A stretch of 61,237 bases of DNA from positions 1 to 61,237 of the forward strand of contig JBBTUL010000001.1 of assembly GCA_038063755.1 (NCBI GenBank), in the 5' to 3' direction. A program made the translations under genes and the position numbers. Positions 46,359 to 56,202 of the stretch are shown here, one piece after another. Source of the stretch: Patescibacteria group bacterium (GTDB lineage: Bacteria > Patescibacteriota > Minisyncoccia > UBA6257 > 2-01-FULL-56-20). Positions within the stretch are counted from its first letter, which is position 1; the number at the start of each line of letters is the position of its first letter. The notes beneath the pieces are model-generated. The model was not told where the DNA came from, searched no databases, and saw only the letters and a program-made list of their open reading frames with translations.

Positions 46359-46817
46359 TTAGAACGGGATTTCTTCCATCGGTGCGGCATCGTCGAGGTT
46401 GATGATCGGGATTTCTTCTTCCTTCGCCTCTTCCTGTGGAATTTCTGCGCTTTTTGCCGCTCCGCCGCTTCTGTCTCCTCCGCCTCCCTGCGGCTTTGGC
46501 CCAAGTTGCAAGCGCTCGCAAATAATTTCCGTCGATTTATGATTCGCGCCATTTTTATCCTGCCACGTGCGAGTCTGCAGACGCCCCTCAACGAGCGTAA
46601 GGCTCCCCTTGGTGAGGAATTGTGTCGCAATTTCGGCTTGCCTTCCCCAGGCAACAACGTTATGGAACTCTGTCTCTTCCTGCCGCGCGCCACCCTTGTC
46701 GCTCCAAGTCCGATTTGTCGCGACGCTAAAGGTCGTCACCGACGAACCGCTTGCGGTTCGGCGAAGTTCCGGCGTTGCGGTTACCCTTCCTACGATAAAT
46801 GCTTTGTTGAGATTCAT
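46359..46817 (-). CDS. ssb: Single-stranded DNA-binding protein
   Basis: NKAFIVGR...PELR; VEGRLQTRTW; acidic EEIPF tail. Confidence 0.98.
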   Translation of the reverse strand: MNLNKAFIVGRVTATPELRRTASGSSVTTFSVATNRTWSDKGGARQEETEFHNVVAWGRQAEIATQFLTKGSLTLVEGRLQTRTWQDKNGANHKSTEIICERLQLGPKPQGGGGDRSGGAAKSAEIPQEEAKEEEIPIINLDDAAPMEEIPF

Positions 46818-46838: not shown

Positions 46839-47261
46839 TTATTGCAGGATTTCTTCGATTTTCTTTTCGAGCGCTTCGTTGCTAAGCGTTGCCGGCTTCG
46901 CTTCGTACGGTTTTTGGGGACGCATCCGTTCTCCTCCGCCAAATCCACCCTGGAAGTCTCTAGGCCTTGGCTTCTGTCGTGAAAACGGAGGCGTAATAAG
47001 TAAAAAGCGAATGATTCCGGGTTTTATGTTTAACTCGTTGCTCACGTCTTTTGTTTTCTCCGGAAGAAGCGAGAAATGGCAATATCCAAAAAGCGCCACG
47101 CCCTCCTTCTTTATCTCGTAGGCAAGAGTCGTGCGGGTCACCGGACCTTCGAAGCTCACATCTGCTTCAAATTTCTTGAGTGTCGCGATGAGATCTTTCG
47201 CGTCTTCTTCTGCTTTCGCAAGGAACGCGAGTTCGTATTCTTTTTTATCGGTAGTTTCCAT
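46839..47261 (-). CDS. rpsF: 30S ribosomal protein S6
   Basis: YELAF; LAYEIKK; IIRFLLI; rpsF-ssb-rpsR synteny. Confidence 0.93.
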   Translation of the reverse strand: METTDKKEYELAFLAKAEEDAKDLIATLKKFEADVSFEGPVTRTTLAYEIKKEGVALFGYCHFSLLPEKTKDVSNELNIKPGIIRFLLITPPFSRQKPRPRDFQGGFGGGERMRPQKPYEAKPATLSNEALEKKIEEILQ

Positions 47262-47268
47262 GTATTTT

Positions 47269-50200
47269 TTATGCTTGATGCTCTTGGACTACGTCGTCAG
47301 ACATACCTGGCGCGGCTTCGGTTATTTCGGGAACTTTATACCCCGATCCGGCAGGAATCAATCTTCCGATGATGACATTCTCCTTGAGTCCACGCAGCGT
47401 GTCAACCCTCCCTTCAATCGCGGCCCCTACCAGTACGCGCGATGTATCTTGGAATGATGCTGCGGAAAGGAAGCTCTCTGTGGTAAGCGCAACACGGGTA
47501 ATTCCCATAAGCAACTGTCTTGCCTTTGCGGGAGTCTTGCCGTCTTTCTTGAGCGCGCGATTCAATTCCAGAAACTTTGATTTTTCGAGAACTTCTCCCA
47601 TAACTATTTCGCCCGCATCTCCGGCGTGCGTCACGCGGACACGCGAGAACATCTGCCGAACAATAACTTCGATGTGCTTGTCGTGGATCGCAGCTCCTTC
47701 GGCCATATAGATTCTCTGCACTTCGCCGATGATATGCCTCATAACCTCGTGGCTTCCTCTGAACTGCAAAAGTTCTTTTAGGTCAATGCTTCCTTCCGAG
47801 AGCTGATCACCAGCCTTCACCTTGTCGCCAGTTTTTACGAGCGTAAGAACCGAGCGAGGAATAGGATATTCGATCTGCTTCACGTCGCCCTTCTTCGCCT
47901 TTGTTCCTGGTGCTGGCTTCTTCGTTTTTGTTCGCTTTCGAAGCTCCCCTTCAACGCGAACAACGATCACCTTGAATGATTCGCGCTCCTCAACTGCCTC
48001 CACGACCCCATCGGAAGCTGAAAGTACGGCCTTTCCTTTTGGAGGACGAGCTTCGAAAAGCTCTTCGATACGAGGAAGACCGTGCGTAATATCAAGTCCG
48101 GCGACTCCTCCGGTATGGAACGTTCTCATGGTGAGCTGTGTCCCTGGCTCTCCGATTGACTGCGCGGCAATAACGCCAACTGCCGAACCGATCGAAACCG
48201 CCTGATTCATTCCGAGGTCAAATCCGTAACATTTTCCACATAAGCCAAAAAGCGTTTTACAGGCAAGCGGAGAACGAACGGCAATAGAATCAACACCTGA
48301 AGCGTCGACAATCTCCGCGGTTCTCTTATCAACAATTTCTCCCGCTTTCACAAGCGTTTTTCGGCCATCCTTTACGTCTTCAATAACCGATCGCGCGAAG
48401 AGACGCGTACCGAATGATTGTCCGAATGCCCTTCCGTCGTTTCGATTAATCGTAACGCCTTCTTTTGTCCGGCAATCGTCCTCTCGAATAATGATGTCTT
48501 GGGCCACATCAACCAAGCGCCGAGTCAAATACCCTGCTTGCGCGGTTTTGAGCGCCGTATCCGTCGTTCCTTTGCGAGCGCCGTGAGTCGAGATGAAATA
48601 TTCGATAACCGAGAGACCTTCTTTATATGAAGCCTTGATCGGAAGTTCCATGGTTTCACCCTTTGGGTTCGAAACGAGTCCCTTCATGCCCATCATCTGG
48701 GACGGCTGAGACCATGATCCACGCGCGTTCGAATCGACAATCTGATAGACCGGATTATCTTTCTTGAGGGCGCTTAAAACAAGCTTGTCGATTTGGCTCT
48801 TCACGCGCATCCAAACCTCGATCACTCGTGCGCGACGCTCGCCTTCGGTAAGTAAACCGTCATTGAACTGTTCGTGGATGGCATCGATTTCCTTCTCCGC
48901 GCTCTTTACGATACCCTCCTTCTCTTTCGGGGTAACGAGGTCCGATATCGCCCAGGTGATGCCTGATTTTGTTGCCATCTCGAATCCAAGAAGTTTAACG
49001 TTGTCTAAAATCTGTCGCGCTCGCTCTAGGCCGCGCATATCAAATATCTGCTCGATGACCTTCGCGATTTTCTTCTTGTTCAATGTTTCTCCGACGAATG
49101 GAAGCGTCCCTTCAAGTGAGCGGTTCAAGATGAACCTGCCAAACGTTGAGGTTCTGTCTTCGATAATAATTTCTTCGTGAAGCTTGATCACCTTGTTTTC
49201 GTAAGCCATCAAAGCCTCGTTGTAATCAACAAATACTTTCTTCTTTTTCTTGGGATCAATTTCCGCTTCCGGTCGTGTGAGATAATAGATACCAAGAACC
49301 GCGTCCTGCGTAAGTCCCGTAATGAGATCGCCGGTCGCCGGCTTCAAAAGGTTTCTTCCTGCCGACATTATCTCTGCAGCCTCCCATTGCGCGGCGCGGG
49401 AAAGCGGAACGTGTACGGCCATCTGGTCTCCGTCGAAATCGGCGTTAAAAGCCGCGCAAACAAGCGGAGGAATTTGGATTGCAAGGCCTTCAACCAAGAG
49501 CGGTCGGAATGCCTGTACGGAGAGTCTGTGCAAAGTCGGCGCGCGGTTTAGAAGCACTTTTTTATCTCGAATTACGTCTTCAAGAATCGCCCAGATCTCA
49601 TCGCTCCCCTGCTCAATCATGCGATTCGCGATTTTAATGTTGTGCACCAGGCCGCGGTTAATCATCTCTCCGATCACAAATGGACGGAAAAGCTCAAGTG
49701 CCATTTTCTTCGGCAACCCGCATTCGTCGAGACGAAGACGCGGACCAACCACGATTACGGAACGTCCGGAATAGTCAACGCGCTTTCCAAGTAGGTTTTG
49801 GCGGAAACGGCCCTGCTTGCCTTTTAACATATCAGCGAGCGAGCGAAGTGGTCTCCGCTGAGCGGAAAGCTGCTGCGTACCAAAGCGGGCTGAGTTATCT
49901 ATAAGAGCATCAACGGCCTCCTGAAGCATGCGCTTCTCATTTCGAACGATGATTTCCGGAGCTTTGATCTCGAGAAGTTTCTTTAGGCGGTTGTTGCGGT
50001 TTAAGACGCGGCGATAGAGATCATTCAAGTCTGAAGTCGCGTAACGTCCGCCGTCCAAGGCAACCATCGGACGAAGATCCGGAGGGAGCACAGGGAGAAG
50101 CTTCATGATGAGCCACTCGGGACGAGTATTATTCCTCACCATCGCCTTTATAATCTTCAATCTCCGGAGGAGCTTTATTTCGGTTGTTGGGTCTTTCATT

Positions 50201-53200
50201 TCCGAAATCTCCTTTTCCATCGCGGCGACCTCCTTCTTTAGGTTGAGATTCTCAAGAATCGTTTGGATCGCTTCGGCTCCGCTTCCCGCCTTGAAAACCG
50301 TGCTGAATCTGCGAGAGAGCGAAACATATTCGTCTTCACGCAAAATGGTCCCTGGATGAAGTTCCTCGAGTAAATCTTTTACGCGATTCGCACCATCCAA
50401 AAGTTCGCGAGTCGCTTCTTTGCTGTCTGATCCGATAGCCTTAAGCTTTCCCTTGAGCTCCGAGTCAACTTCTTTCATGACGGCCTTTCTGCTTTCGTCA
50501 TCAACTTCGGTCACAATATAGTCGACGTAGTAGATAACTCGTTCGAGCTTCGATGACTGAACGTTCAAAAGCAAAGAGAGTGGCGATGGCGCGCTCTTAA
50601 AGAACCAGATGTGCGTCACTGGCGTAGCAAGCGTAATATGACCAAGTCGCTCGCGGCGCACAACCGAACGGGTTACTTCAACACCGCACTTATCGCAAAC
50701 CACTCCCTTGTAGCGAATTTTTCGATATTTACCACAGTAGCACTCGTAGTCTTTTGTTGGACCGAAAATACGTTCACTAAAAAGTCCGTCTTTTTCCGGT
50801 CTCTGCGTTCGATAGTTAATTGTTTCCGGTTTTATAACTTCTCCATGCGACCAACGCAAGACGTCATCTGGAGAGGCAACGCCAATGCGTAAGCTCGAAA
50901 AATCTTTTGGAGCCTCTGCTTCGGTGAGCGGATTTCCTGCTTTCGTAATGGGTTCGATGTTGAGTCCCAATGACTTCAACTCGCTTACGAGCACGTTAAA
51001 CGATGCCGGAATGTTCGGTTCTTTAATCTCCTCTCCTCGAATAATCGCTTCGTATGCCGCTGACCGCCCCAACACGTCGTCGGATTTAATTGTAAGCATC
51101 TCCTGGAGCACGTGTCGTGCGCCATAGCCCTCAAGCGCCCAGACTTCCATTTCTCCGAAGCGCTGTCCTCCAAACTGCGCCTTTCCTCCAAGCGGCTGCT
51201 GCGTGATTAAGGAGTACGGACCAATGGAACGCATGTGCACCTTATCTTCTACAAGATGGTTCAGCTTCATCATGTAGATTTGTCCGACCATGACGCGGTC
51301 ATGAAACGGCTCTCCCGTTCGGCCATCGTAGAGCATTACCTTTCCGTCTGCAGGAAGATTCGCTTTTTTAAGCTCCTCCCAAATTTGCGCCTCGCTCACT
51401 GAATCAAACGATGGAGTGATTGCTCTATATCCAAGTTTTTCGGCGGCCCAGCCCAAATGCGTCTCAAGAATTTGGCCAAGATTCATACGAGAAACGACGC
51501 CTAATGGGTTTAAAATAATGTCAACGGGAGTGCCATCCGCAAGATGCGGCATGTCCTCCACGGGGCGAACCTGGGAAATGACACCCTTGTTTCCATGGCG
51601 GCCCGCAAGCTTGTCTCCAGCTTGCACCTTCCTGAGGCTCGCGACTTCAATCTGAATTCGTTTAATAATTCCTGCTTCAAGCTTATCTCCCTCGTCGCGC
51701 GAAAAGATTTTCACCCCCACGACGCGCCCGCGCTTTCCGTGCGGCAACGTAAGAGATGTATCTTTTACATCGCGAGCCTTCTCTCCAAAAATGGCGCGAA
51801 GCAAGCGCTCTTCGGCCGTAAGCTCCGCTTCGCCTCGCGGAGAAATTTTTCCAACAAGAATATCTCCCGCATGAACCTCGGCGCCAATACGCACGATTCC
51901 TTCCTCATCAAGATTCTTGAGTTTTTCCTCGGAAACGTTCGGAATATCCGGAGTCATAATTTCCGGCCCAAGCTTCGTGTCTCGAACGTCGCAGTAAAAG
52001 TCTTCTATGTGAATGGAAGTAAACAAATCTTCTCTCGCTACTCGCTCGGAAAGGATAATGGCATCTTCAAAGTTTGCTCCTTCCCACGACATAAACGACA
52101 CAAGAAGATTCTGTCCGAGCGCGAGCACTCCGCGATCAACCGAGGAGCCGTTTGCGATAATATCTCCCTTCTTAACCTTCTGTCCTTTTGTAACGAGCGG
52201 ATCTTGCGAAATGGCGCTGAATTGGTTGGAACGCTTGAACTTTACAAGATTGTATTCCTTCGTGGTTCCTTTGGCATATTTTACGGTTATTTTGCTCGAA
52301 TCAACCTGGGTCACCACGCCTTCCCCTTCTGCCGCAATAACATATCCCGAATCTCTTGCAACCTTTTCTTCCTCTCCGGTCCCAACGTAAGGAGCGCTCG
52401 GACGGATTGACGGCACCGCTTGGCGCTGCATGTTTGAACCCATGAGTGCGCGGTTTGCATCGTCATGCTGTAAGAATGGAATAAGCGATGTCGCAACGGA
52501 AACGAATTGATGCGGAGCCACTTCCATAAGATCAATGTCCCCTACGGGGCAGGTGCTCGGCTCACCTCCGATGCGGGATTCCACAACCGTTCCTAAAATC
52601 TTTCCTTTCGCATCGCGCTCAACGGCCCCGTTTGCGATTTTATATTTTTCTTCCTCAAGCGCATCAAGCCAAACAATTTCATCAGTCGCTCTTCCACTTT
52701 TAACTTTTACGTACGGAGTTTCAAGAAAACCAAAATCGTTTACTCGGGCGAAGCTCGCAAGATAGTTGATAAGACCGATGTTCGATCCTTCCGGCGTCTC
52801 GATCGGACAGATGCGTCCGTAGTGAGAGCGGTGAACGTCACGCACTTCGAAGCTTGCGCGCTCGCGCGTAAGACCTCCGGGACCGAGTGCCGAAAGACGC
52901 CTCTTATGCTCAAGTTCGGCTAAAGGATTTACCTGGTCCATGAACTGCGAAAGCTGTGAAGAAGCAAAAAACTCTTTAATAACTGCTGCAATCGGGCGGA
53001 AATTGATGAGCTGTGCCGGAGCGAGTGCATCGCGATCAAGCGTTGACATTCTATCCTGTACAATACGGCGAAGCCGTGCAACACCAACGCGAAGCCTTCC
53101 CTCAAGCAATTCTCCGACCGCCTTCACGCGGCGATTTCCCAAGTGGTCAATGTCATCCGATATGGCACTCGACGTATTGTTGAGCCTGATAATTTCACGG

Positions 53201-54087
53201 ACCATTCCCAAAATATCCTCTTTGTCCAAAAGAGGTTCTTTTTTCTTCTCGGAAAGGCCAAGTCTACGATTTACCTTGAAACGACCTACTGCCGAAAGGT
53301 CATAGCGATCAAATCGATGAAAAATACCATCGATAAGGCTTTTTGCTGTTTCGGCGTTTGCAGGGTCGCCCGGGCGCAAGCGACGATAGATCTCTATATA
53401 TGACTCGTCGACATCCTTTGCGATGTCTTTTTTAAATGTTGCCTCAAGAAAATTTATCGGCCCGGTATCGATATCGAGGAGCTTTCTCCTCATCTCTTCT
53501 TCTCCGACTCCAAAGATACGAAGGAGGTCGGTCACGGGAACCTTTCGATGCCGATCGATTTTAACGCCGATTACTCCATCGATGTCTGTCTCGAATTCAA
53601 GCCATGATCCTCGGTTCGGAATAACCTTCGCACCGAAAAGTTTCTTCCCGCGAAAAGCGACTGCCGTGAAATATACTCCGGCAGAACGAACAAGCTGCGA
53701 AACGACAACGCGCTCAACGCCGTTTATAATGAAAGTTCCGCGATCGGTCATGACCGGGAAGTCGCCGAAATACACCTCCTGCTTTTCGGTGTGTCCTGTG
53801 TTTTTGTTCTTCAAGCGAATGCTCATATGAAGGGGTGCCTCATATGTCGCTTCTTTGTATCGGGATGTTACTTCGTCGTACTTCGGTTCGCCAAAAGAAT
53901 AATCATCGAAGTGAAGCTCGAGCTCGTTTCCGGTGTGATCATGAATCGGGGAAATTTCTTTTAATAATGTCTTGAGTCCTTCTTTTAAAAACCACTGATA
54001 GGACTTCAACTGCATCTCATTCAAGTTGTCGATGGAGAGAGCCGGCTTGAACCGCGAGAAGTCTTTCTTGGGAAGTGGGTGCGACAT
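47269..54087 (-). CDS. rpoBC: Fused RNA polymerase beta-beta' subunit (2272 aa)
   Basis: Beta motifs (SQFMDQ, GDKLAGRHGNKG, GQRFGEMEVWAL) continue without a stop into beta' motifs (CYCGK..CDKC, NADFDGD, GEPGTQLT). Confidence 0.95.
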   Translation of the reverse strand: MSHPLPKKDFSRFKPALSIDNLNEMQLKSYQWFLKEGLKTLLKEISPIHDHTGNELELHFDDYSFGEPKYDEVTSRYKEATYEAPLHMSIRLKNKNTGHTEKQEVYFGDFPVMTDRGTFIINGVERVVVSQLVRSAGVYFTAVAFRGKKLFGAKVIPNRGSWLEFETDIDGVIGVKIDRHRKVPVTDLLRIFGVGEEEMRRKLLDIDTGPINFLEATFKKDIAKDVDESYIEIYRRLRPGDPANAETAKSLIDGIFHRFDRYDLSAVGRFKVNRRLGLSEKKKEPLLDKEDILGMVREIIRLNNTSSAISDDIDHLGNRRVKAVGELLEGRLRVGVARLRRIVQDRMSTLDRDALAPAQLINFRPIAAVIKEFFASSQLSQFMDQVNPLAELEHKRRLSALGPGGLTRERASFEVRDVHRSHYGRICPIETPEGSNIGLINYLASFARVNDFGFLETPYVKVKSGRATDEIVWLDALEEEKYKIANGAVERDAKGKILGTVVESRIGGEPSTCPVGDIDLMEVAPHQFVSVATSLIPFLQHDDANRALMGSNMQRQAVPSIRPSAPYVGTGEEEKVARDSGYVIAAEGEGVVTQVDSSKITVKYAKGTTKEYNLVKFKRSNQFSAISQDPLVTKGQKVKKGDIIANGSSVDRGVLALGQNLLVSFMSWEGANFEDAIILSERVAREDLFTSIHIEDFYCDVRDTKLGPEIMTPDIPNVSEEKLKNLDEEGIVRIGAEVHAGDILVGKISPRGEAELTAEERLLRAIFGEKARDVKDTSLTLPHGKRGRVVGVKIFSRDEGDKLEAGIIKRIQIEVASLRKVQAGDKLAGRHGNKGVISQVRPVEDMPHLADGTPVDIILNPLGVVSRMNLGQILETHLGWAAEKLGYRAITPSFDSVSEAQIWEELKKANLPADGKVMLYDGRTGEPFHDRVMVGQIYMMKLNHLVEDKVHMRSIGPYSLITQQPLGGKAQFGGQRFGEMEVWALEGYGARHVLQEMLTIKSDDVLGRSAAYEAIIRGEEIKEPNIPASFNVLVSELKSLGLNIEPITKAGNPLTEAEAPKDFSSLRIGVASPDDVLRWSHGEVIKPETINYRTQRPEKDGLFSERIFGPTKDYECYCGKYRKIRYKGVVCDKCGVEVTRSVVRRERLGHITLATPVTHIWFFKSAPSPLSLLLNVQSSKLERVIYYVDYIVTEVDDESRKAVMKEVDSELKGKLKAIGSDSKEATRELLDGANRVKDLLEELHPGTILREDEYVSLSRRFSTVFKAGSGAEAIQTILENLNLKKEVAAMEKEISEMKDPTTEIKLLRRLKIIKAMVRNNTRPEWLIMKLLPVLPPDLRPMVALDGGRYATSDLNDLYRRVLNRNNRLKKLLEIKAPEIIVRNEKRMLQEAVDALIDNSARFGTQQLSAQRRPLRSLADMLKGKQGRFRQNLLGKRVDYSGRSVIVVGPRLRLDECGLPKKMALELFRPFVIGEMINRGLVHNIKIANRMIEQGSDEIWAILEDVIRDKKVLLNRAPTLHRLSVQAFRPLLVEGLAIQIPPLVCAAFNADFDGDQMAVHVPLSRAAQWEAAEIMSAGRNLLKPATGDLITGLTQDAVLGIYYLTRPEAEIDPKKKKKVFVDYNEALMAYENKVIKLHEEIIIEDRTSTFGRFILNRSLEGTLPFVGETLNKKKIAKVIEQIFDMRGLERARQILDNVKLLGFEMATKSGITWAISDLVTPKEKEGIVKSAEKEIDAIHEQFNDGLLTEGERRARVIEVWMRVKSQIDKLVLSALKKDNPVYQIVDSNARGSWSQPSQMMGMKGLVSNPKGETMELPIKASYKEGLSVIEYFISTHGARKGTTDTALKTAQAGYLTRRLVDVAQDIIIREDDCRTKEGVTINRNDGRAFGQSFGTRLFARSVIEDVKDGRKTLVKAGEIVDKRTAEIVDASGVDSIAVRSPLACKTLFGLCGKCYGFDLGMNQAVSIGSAVGVIAAQSIGEPGTQLTMRTFHTGGVAGLDITHGLPRIEELFEARPPKGKAVLSASDGVVEAVEERESFKVIVVRVEGELRKRTKTKKPAPGTKAKKGDVKQIEYPIPRSVLTLVKTGDKVKAGDQLSEGSIDLKELLQFRGSHEVMRHIIGEVQRIYMAEGAAIHDKHIEVIVRQMFSRVRVTHAGDAGEIVMGEVLEKSKFLELNRALKKDGKTPAKARQLLMGITRVALTTESFLSAASFQDTSRVLVGAAIEGRVDTLRGLKENVIIGRLIPAGSGYKVPEITEAAPGMSDDVVQEHQA

Positions 54088-54185: not shown

Positions 54186-55181
54186 TTACGAGTTCTTTAA
54201 GAGGTATTTAACTCTATTCTCCTCGTGCCTGTCAAGGGTTTGTGAAAAAATAGTTTTCCCGGTCTTCGGATCGGAAAGATAGAACCAATATGGCGAATCG
54301 ACCGGTTGAAGCGCTGCCCGTATTGCCTCTATCCCCGGATTTCCAATCGGTCCGGGAGGAAGACCCTTATTTAGGTAGGTATTATATGGCGAATCGATCT
54401 TGAAGTCAAGCGAAGAGAGGGGGTAACAGTTCGAGACCCTCGTTTTGGCCTCTTTTATATAGCAAATTGAGGCATCGACCTGAAGAGCCATACCGACCTT
54501 AAGCCGCTTTTTAAGAATACCTGCGACAATCTGCCGATCAGAAAAATCGCTCACTTCCCTTTCAAGAAGTGAGGCCAACACCAGATCATCTGCTCCGCCA
54601 TCCGGCCTTCCGGCGAGAAGTTCATCGGTCCGCTCTCTAAAGTTTTGGATCATCTTTTCAAGCACTTCATTTGGCGTTGACGAGACATAAAAACGATAGG
54701 TGTCTGGAAAAAGCTTCCCCTCTGCGGAAATGGACGACGGAAAGATGCGGGAAATAAACGATCCTTTTTTTAATACTCCGCTTTCGGCAAGTACCGCATC
54801 GATATCGTAAATCGTCGACCCTTCAACAATGGTTACCTCAACCTCTCTTGATGGCCCCGCGACGAACGCCCGAATGATTTTCGGTGTTCGATCGGTCGCA
54901 TCAAAAATATAGGCTCCGGGCTTCAGATCGTTCCATGCGCCCGAAAGTATCGCGTAACCCGCAAAGGCAAACGACGAACGGACAAGTCTCGCGCTCACCA
55001 CTTCTTTTGCAACGTCGAACACGCCAGACTCATTTGAAATTACGACTTGAACCTTTCCTTTCCCGCCAGGAAAAAAGAGCGATATAAACAAGAGATAGCC
55101 GAAAAACGCGCACAAAAAAAGCACTGAGGAAAAAAGTCCAACGGTTAAATATCGGATATTATGATCGTCTTCGAATTGCAT
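54186..55181 (-). CDS. mltG: Endolytic transglycosylase MltG
   Basis: EGKLFPDTY; LASLLERE; LQVDAS; SPYNTYLNKGLPPGPIGNPG. Confidence 0.95.
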   Translation of the reverse strand: MQFEDDHNIRYLTVGLFSSVLFLCAFFGYLLFISLFFPGGKGKVQVVISNESGVFDVAKEVVSARLVRSSFAFAGYAILSGAWNDLKPGAYIFDATDRTPKIIRAFVAGPSREVEVTIVEGSTIYDIDAVLAESGVLKKGSFISRIFPSSISAEGKLFPDTYRFYVSSTPNEVLEKMIQNFRERTDELLAGRPDGGADDLVLASLLEREVSDFSDRQIVAGILKKRLKVGMALQVDASICYIKEAKTRVSNCYPLSSLDFKIDSPYNTYLNKGLPPGPIGNPGIEAIRAALQPVDSPYWFYLSDPKTGKTIFSQTLDRHEENRVKYLLKNS

Positions 55182-56202
55182 AAAATGCTCCTACGAGTGA
55201 AAAATTTAAAAGCATGTTCGACCCCCCGTAGCTTAAAAATGGAAATGGAACCCCGATGACCGGGAGAAGCCCGACTGCCGATCCGGTGTTTACCAAAAAA
55301 TGAAGCCCGAAGACAACAACCATACCAAGAGAAACAAACTTCTCAAAATTAGTTTCTGCCCGAAGTCCCTCGCGGAGGATTCCTATGCAAAGAAAAACGA
55401 GAGCGGCAATGATGATAAGTCCGGCAATGCGGCCCCACTCCTCAACGAGAGCGGAAAAGATGAAGTCTGTTGCCGGATCGGTCAAAAACCCAAGCTGCGT
55501 TTGAGATCCTTGCCCATACCCCTTCCCCCAAAAACCGGCGGAACCAATTGCAATTTTGGACTGTATAACGCTGTAGTTTATTCCAAGAGCGTTCCGTTCC
55601 GGGTAAAAAACCGCCGCAATACGATCGCGCTGATAGTCCTTAAGAAATACGCTCCACCCGATTGCAAGCGCGATCACAAAAAGAACAAGCGACGCGATTA
55701 TCCATTTTCTTGGAAGACCGGAGACCAGAAGGAATCCGAACCAAAGCCCCACGAGTATTATCGCCGAACCGAGATCTGGCTGAAGCAGTGTGAGTAGGAC
55801 GGGAACCGCGCAGATTCCACCGGAAATAAAAACATATCTTAATCGCGCGATACTCAAATGTCTTCGGCTGAAATACTGTGCGAACACTAAAATAAGCGCG
55901 AGTTTTGCAAGCTCTACTGGCTGGAAATGGAACGGACCGAAAACAAGCCAGCTTCGCGTGTTGCGAATACCCGGTGCTACGAAAAGCGTGATAAGAAGCA
56001 GCGCAACCGCGACTCCATAAACTGTCCACGAAAACCATCCAGCACGGAGCATTCCGGCCCTCTCAAGCGCGAACATTACCCCCACAATCACTATTCCCGC
56101 CGCAAGCCATCCAAGCTGAAGCAAAAGAAAGCTCGAAGAAATACTCGAAAGCATCACGAGACTCGCAAAAACAAGAACTCCTACCGGAAACCAAATTTTC
56201 AT
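55159..56202 (-). CDS. rodA: SEDS peptidoglycan polymerase (RodA/FtsW)
   Basis: RSWL..G..HFQPVELAK; QPDLGSA; TDFIFS..VEEWG; PFLSYGGS. Confidence 0.9.
   Translation of the reverse strand: MKIWFPVGVLVFASLVMLSSISSSFLLLQLGWLAAGIVIVGVMFALERAGMLRAGWFSWTVYGVAVALLLITLFVAPGIRNTRSWLVFGPFHFQPVELAKLALILVFAQYFSRRHLSIARLRYVFISGGICAVPVLLTLLQPDLGSAIILVGLWFGFLLVSGLPRKWIIASLVLFVIALAIGWSVFLKDYQRDRIAAVFYPERNALGINYSVIQSKIAIGSAGFWGKGYGQGSQTQLGFLTDPATDFIFSALVEEWGRIAGLIIIAALVFLCIGILREGLRAETNFEKFVSLGMVVVFGLHFLVNTGSAVGLLPVIGVPFPFLSYGGSNMLLNFSLVGAFYAIRRRS

Follow-up and report, generated by a model that had tools for sequence, protein, structure and literature searches.

A natural rpoB-rpoC gene fusion shared by a family of uncultured Paceibacteria

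In the genome of an ultra-small groundwater bacterium of the Patescibacteria, the genes for the two large RNA polymerase subunits, rpoB (beta) and rpoC (beta'), run into one another in a single reading frame. This raises the question of whether the two genes are truly fused, how and how often such a fusion has arisen, and whether the cell makes one polypeptide or two. Natural beta-beta' fusions are known in Helicobacteraceae (Zakharova et al. 1999, as cited in PMC1557499 and PMC7483510) and in Wolbachia (Lane and Darst 2010, as cited in PMC7483510), and the earlier note on this DNA names both groups; in PMC1557499, the rpoB-rpoC fusion serves as a rare genomic change uniting Helicobacter and Wolinella. 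For CPR, Patescibacteria or Parcubacteria, a full-text literature search found no published mention of fused rpoB and rpoC.

Here, we describe the structure, distribution and proposed origin of the fused gene in a window of 61,237 nucleotides, the whole stretch of DNA that was analysed (contig JBBTUL010000001.1 of GenBank assembly GCA_038063755.1). We are highly confident that the rpoB-rpoC gene fusion in the window is genuine and ancient. Real and inherited, it adds one more independent example of an already known type of fusion and opens no new mechanism. What it offers is a rare genomic change marking a whole family of uncultured Paceibacteria (hereafter f1; ~125 species and 48 genera in GTDB), and further natural examples, independent in origin, of large RNA polymerase subunits that are tethered, to set beside those of Helicobacteraceae and Wolbachia.

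Gene structure and neighbourhood

On the minus strand of the window, positions 47269-54087 form a single open reading frame (rpoBC) of 2272 codons without an internal stop, closed by TAA and encoding a predicted protein of 253 kDa. An open frame of this length cannot be a product of chance. Searching the protein against Pfam recovered all seven RpoB domains (Rpb2 domains 1, 2, 3, 45, 6 and 7) followed by all five RpoC domains (1-5), in order. The RpoB module comprises residues 1-1045 (50953..54087, minus strand) and retains the beta motif GEMEVWALE at residues 978-986. The RpoC module comprises residues 1062-2272 (47272..50904, minus strand) and starts at DFSSLRIGVASP, equivalent to residue 2 onward of free RpoC; its zinc finger CYCGKY...CDKCG (residues 1116-1135) and catalytic NADFDGD (residues 1548-1554) are both intact. 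Joining the modules is a 16-residue linker, PITKAGNPLTEAEAPK (residues 1046-1061; 50905..50952, minus strand). The earlier note had placed a fusion linker of this length at exactly these coordinates; the strand was absent from it.

Comparison with NCBIfam models gave 1532.2 bits against a cut-off of 896 for rpoB NF001616 (residues 7-1045, model positions 3-1093 of 1096), 1523.5 bits against 801 for RpoB model TIGR02013, and 1536.9 bits against 963.5 for rpoC TIGR02386 (residues 1066-2251). With NF001616 and TIGR02386 matched end to end above their cut-offs and the motifs intact, both halves are complete. The window's genome (868 kb, 17 contigs, 98% complete) yielded one rpoB/rpoC match, and a search of it found no second, separate rpoB or rpoC.

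The classical arrangement of these genes is rplKAJL-rpoBC-rpsLG. In the window, the upstream neighbours of rpoBC are yceG/mltG (54186-55181, minus strand) and ftsW/rodA (55159-56202, minus strand), with an open reading frame and an S41 peptidase farther upstream, and on the downstream side rpsF (46839-47261, minus strand) and ssb (46359-46817, minus strand) replace the usual rpsL-rpsG. The remark in the earlier note that rplL/rplJ are not upstream thus holds, and we located rplJ-rplL on contig C8 of the same genome at ~48.4-49.3 kb. The order ftsW-yceG/mltG-rpoB-rpoC-rpsF-ssb is common to fused and unfused members of the taxonomic order (loci L013-L086), and rplL lies upstream of rpoB only in non-CPR outgroups. 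We considered whether the rearrangement of rplKAJL is tied to the fusion and rejected this, as unfused relatives have the same gene order; the rearrangement is older than the fusion and has no connection with it.

Between yceG and rpoBC lies a 98-nt spacer that contains, on the minus strand, a terminator-like hairpin (54182-54165) and then a promoter-like TTCAAA-18-AATAAT (54131-54102); both are consensus matches only, and the promoter-like site is weak. A conserved 5' leader RNA was also considered and found no support, with eight f1 upstream regions aligning at 34% identity without an invariant column. The upstream spacer of rpoBC had no match in Rfam.

Distribution and independent origins of the fusion

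We took a census of the family using 125 species genomes of f1 and a 351-aa probe spanning the junction. The probe matched 115 species, and the junction is stop-free in 111 of them. Read on DNA, the four exceptions are uninformative: one contig ends inside the fused frame (G856), two error-rich assemblies carry frameshifts all along the gene (G819 and G837), and one divergent contig, only 50% identical, carries TGA codons (G871:C44). Among the 115 matching species no reversal to separate rpoB and rpoC was seen. As a separate observation, rpoBC of G819 (C3:280500-289500; locus L133) and G837 (C2:128000-137000; L134) is broken into ~10 pieces in differing frames, in assemblies of few contigs; the likeliest cause of the breakage is indel errors left uncorrected in long-read assemblies.

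Beyond the family, we surveyed 401 genomes of the order and classified the junctions of 40 representative loci and 91 other loci on DNA. Apparent open-frame length in this survey reads through stops, and each junction was checked at the nucleotide level. Seven genomes with two same-frame matches (G038, G040, G049, G123, G154, G170 and G206) were rejected as fusions on finding stops between the genes, and locus L074, which had counted as fused only because its junction is masked with N, was dropped. Fusions outside f1 were found in family f30 (G065, G114 and G134; linkers of 60-72 nt), in family f8 (G043; 33 nt) and in one genome of family f15 (G078; 90 nt), all with linkers unrelated in sequence to that of f1. 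All other sampled families have separate rpoB and rpoC, including MAGs named Wolfebacteria, Harrisonbacteria and Brennerbacteria, and outside the order the same holds for more distant MAGs, those of Portnoybacteria and Doudnabacteria. Across samples of 400 class and 400 phylum genomes, a screen at E <= 1e-90, which long-linker fusions would escape, found no further stop-free short-linker junction; further in-frame arrangements did occur there, all with stops.

In 31 of the 86 classifiable unfused loci, a share inflated by loci chosen for this property, rpoB and rpoC lie in the same frame with only stops between them, and some spacers measure no more than three codons (for example ...EIEKK*KTMNFDALK). 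This arrangement, with one to three stops, mostly TAA, and a short spacer, occurs in dozens of Paceibacteria and other Patescibacteria. Same-frame pairs of this kind are one substitution from fusion.

Two further observations were made in the survey. Bin G207 of family f24 contains two junctions (C3:32600-33634 and C11:10660-11745), one fused, f1-like and 75% identical to that of the window, the other of its own family's type with TAA between the genes, which suggests that the bin is mixed or contaminated. Fusion state could be used as a check for mixed bins, a fused contig in another family's bin signalling contamination. In family f7 of the same order, the rpoB/rpoC genes of loci L105 (G042:C7:3300-10700) and L131 (G118:C6:7500-16000) contain 13 and 15 in-frame TGA codons, respectively. 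Ten of the 13 in L105 fall on alignment columns with Trp in at least 96 of 111 other sequences, and family f7 thus appears, from the rpoB/rpoC alignment, to read TGA as Trp.

Mapping a fusion survey on a tree, as the earlier note had proposed, placed the fused genes in separate parts of the order. The trees are those of the polymerase proteins themselves, computed from concatenated RpoB and RpoC with the linker omitted (FastTree, 113 rows; IQ-TREE, 53 rows). On them the f1 rows, all of them fused, group together with 100% support, and the sister of this clade, L039, is unfused. A second fused clade, again supported at 100%, unites families f8 and f30; it is sister to f15, in which fusion is confined to the basal genome G078. 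At least three changes in fusion state are needed, a number that branches with strong support force. A single clade of all fused rows was rejected by an AU test (log-likelihood difference 332, p = 7e-53), and this rejection together with the separate clades indicates at least two independent fusions in the order. The f8/f30/f15 group is explained either by two gains or by one gain and one re-split; beyond f1 there was at least one further fusion in the order and probably two. The fusion had been put forward as a useful clade marker, a claim that holds with a qualification: f1 is a wholly fused clade with an unfused sister, but fusion is not unique to it in the order. It is a genuine family-level marker in Liptonbacteria-type Paceibacteria, of use in taxonomy and in quality control of bins.

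Why the fusion was kept is a separate matter, on which the omega subunit bears. We did not detect rpoZ (omega, PF01192) in any of 61 genomes of the order (G000-G060), fused or unfused, and the same search found it in 14 of 14 control genomes. The negative genomes comprise that of the window with 36 f1 relatives, and all 24 examined from the order's other families, nearly all with separate rpoB and rpoC. Since rpoZ is undetected in unfused families as well, a lack of omega can be no more than a permissive background to the fusion and did not cause it; missing across the order, neither omega nor the rplKAJL linkage is tied to it. A narrower proposal, compatible with the main explanation, is that the tether was retained in these minimal cells as an adaptive substitute for omega, which aids the folding and assembly of beta'. 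The lack of a detectable rpoZ throughout the sampled f1 genomes and the recurrence of at least two independent fusions within one order speak for this. However, omega is equally undetectable in the 24 genomes of other families, so that its loss neither requires nor predicts fusion; a variable linker and a hard reversal fit a neutral ratchet equally well; and a Pfam profile could miss short, divergent omega homologues. We consider such a substitution unlikely.

The junction and its product

The junction reads ...ELKSLGLNIE-PITKAGNPLTEAEAPK-DFSSLRIGVASP..., free of stops. A codon check bore out the description in the earlier note of a linker with neither a stop nor an in-frame ATG, GTG or TTG, and extended it: no such start codon occurs in frame between residues 1041 and 1076, the nearest being TTG at residue 1040 (six codons before the linker) and TTG at residue 1077 (16 after it). 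The sole start-like codon within the linker is ATT at residue 1047. Where the linker lies, unfused relatives have the C-terminal tail of RpoB, a stop codon, a spacer and the start codon of rpoC, and their free RpoC begins M-[DN]-F-x-A-[IL]-K-[LI]-K-[IL]-A-S-P-E. In f1 the same RpoC motif follows the linker, and D, E, N or K has taken the place of the former initiator Met in the whole family. This family-wide replacement of the initiator Met, combined with the lack of a stop, indicates that the rpoB stop and the rpoC start have both been lost.

Linkers in f1 range from 10 to 19 residues. The majority form has 11, with the pattern P-[ILV]-[YF]-[DE]-S-x-x-x-R-[KR]-[DE]. A single fixed, conserved linker for the family can be dismissed, as this pattern holds for the majority only, and the window, its sister genome G003 and three other subclades differ in length and sequence: the linker of G003 is VPKPEEGGKQN, Liptonbacteria MAGs L026 and L027 have 18-19 residues, and L020, L034 and L036 have 10-12 residues of unrelated sequence. 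We modelled residues 940-1340 with AlphaFold2 using 32 aligned fused sequences, a fragment out of context that gave a prediction of modest quality (mean pLDDT 66). The linker is predicted as coil with pLDDT ~61-70, a dip between the C-terminal strand of beta (~79) and the N-terminal strand of beta' (~88). The model fits a tolerant tether and not a structured new element, and variation of the linker in both length and sequence fits a simple tether as well.

Judged from the gene, the cell would make one beta-beta' polypeptide of ~253 kDa. The genes could be fused and two subunits still be made, either because translation starts again internally, close to the junction, or because proteolysis cuts an exposed linker, and some features would accommodate this: the in-frame TTG codons at residues 1040 and 1077 and the ATT at 1047, the predicted exposed coil, and an NCBI record that places a 1204-aa beta' inside the fused frame of a relative. 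However, the linker has no canonical start and the ancestral Met is replaced in every f1 member; internal initiation would not end beta, so that the full-length fused chain would still be made; and the 1204-aa call is most simply attributed to gene calling guided by a protein model. Production of two subunits is therefore quite improbable. A tryptic peptide within the linker, AGNPLTEAEAPK, would belong to the single chain.

The record in question, RJQ29345.1, is a 1204-aa beta' carved from a 2249-aa fused frame (L013, QZIV01000009.1). Another, MFA6354126.1 (L024, JBAYLC010000001.1), is a fused protein of 2274 aa named only beta'. These point to an annotation gap, in which public records call proteins of 2250-2300 aa simply beta' or split them artificially.

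The junction stretch is also present in public groundwater metagenome runs. Logan contigs assembled separately from two groundwater samples (X1 and X2) span positions 50600-51160 at depths of ~9.7 and ~5, and neither a differing letter nor an indel sets them apart from the window; X1 may be the source of the window and X2 comes from the same study, which makes their support only partly independent. The judgement of the earlier note that a single sequencing error would not easily explain the junction agrees with these contigs and with the open junction of 111 of 115 f1 species. MAG assemblies can carry a lost stop or an indel that falsely joins two ordinary genes, and two f1 assemblies are full of frameshifts, but an open junction in 111 independently assembled species, the exact match of contigs from two samples and a family-wide missing rpoC start codon, which a single error cannot yield, leave a negligible chance of such an artefact.

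Proposed origin and comparison with known fusions

How might rpoB and rpoC have become fused? Many unfused relatives carry rpoB-TAA-short spacer-ATG-rpoC in one frame, and in the ancestor of one Paceibacteria family, whose members include Candidatus Liptonbacteria MAGs, the two genes would likewise have been closely abutting already. The rpoB stop would have been lost first, after which the redundant rpoC start would have decayed to leave one frame. Stop loss in such an in-frame pair is, we infer, the simplest route to fusion, and the family exposes it as a probable one: a stop codon lost in tightly abutting in-frame genes.

In the resulting ~253 kDa chain a short, sequence-tolerant linker would tie two strands together, the C-terminal one of beta and the N-terminal one of beta', ends that would lie adjacent in the assembled enzyme, and the chain would combine with alpha2 and sigma to form the cell's only RNA polymerase. 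The benefit to the cell that we infer is that the tether would guarantee 1:1 stoichiometry and render beta/beta' association intramolecular. Once formed, the fusion would be hard to undo, because separation needs both a new stop and a new translation start, and this would explain its persistence through ~48 genera.

We also put forward, tentatively, a broader reading of the order as a hotspot of recurrent beta-beta' fusion. It would have seen at least two and probably three events, arising from close abutting and often in-frame genes in omega-less cells, and the fusions would have been kept by selection, as an aid to assembly and stoichiometry of a minimal RNA polymerase, and not by a neutral ratchet.

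Since the 1990s it has been known that beta and beta' can function in fused form. A synthetic E. coli rpoB-rpoC fusion is described as functional where bioRxiv 10.1101/2021.11.05.467461 cites its reference 21. It supplies the mechanistic premise for the fusion in the window, namely that an enzyme whose beta C-terminus is tethered to the N-terminus of beta' can be active. Unlike the rpoBC studied here, that fusion was engineered, in a setting with omega and long E. coli subunits, and is not a natural, fixed trait.

Closer at hand, the fusions of f30, f8 and G078 (f15) in the same order share the neighbourhood and the kind of junction, with short linkers of 33-90 nt, and differ in their unrelated linker sequences and in their positions on the tree, where a common clade was rejected.

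What the window has in common with Wolbachia (NF011417/PRK14844) is a beta-beta' fusion that occurs naturally in a bacterium with a small genome and a dependence on a host, but the two are separate events, Wolbachia belonging to the Alphaproteobacteria. The protein of the window scored 2046 bits against the Wolbachia-type fused equivalog NF011417, whose cut-off of 4632 it does not reach.

The Helicobacteraceae (Helicobacter, Wolinella; NF007172/PRK09603) offer the fullest parallel. There, too, rpoB and rpoC lie head to tail in one frame to give one beta-beta' polypeptide, and an entire family inherits the fusion, which is usable taxonomically as a rare genomic change. The window's fusion differs in phylum, in its independent origin and in an unrelated linker, and its protein has 2272 aa against ~2890 aa, shorter because CPR subunits are without lineage-specific insertions. 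Against the Helicobacter-type fused equivalog NF007172 it scored 2241.9 bits, short of the cut-off of 5372. With the protein of the window far below both fused cut-offs and the f1 clade surrounded by unfused Paceibacteria, the fusion is thus an independent one in a CPR lineage, as had been proposed from the sequence: the same kind of fusion as in Helicobacteraceae and Wolbachia, and not a member of either of those families.
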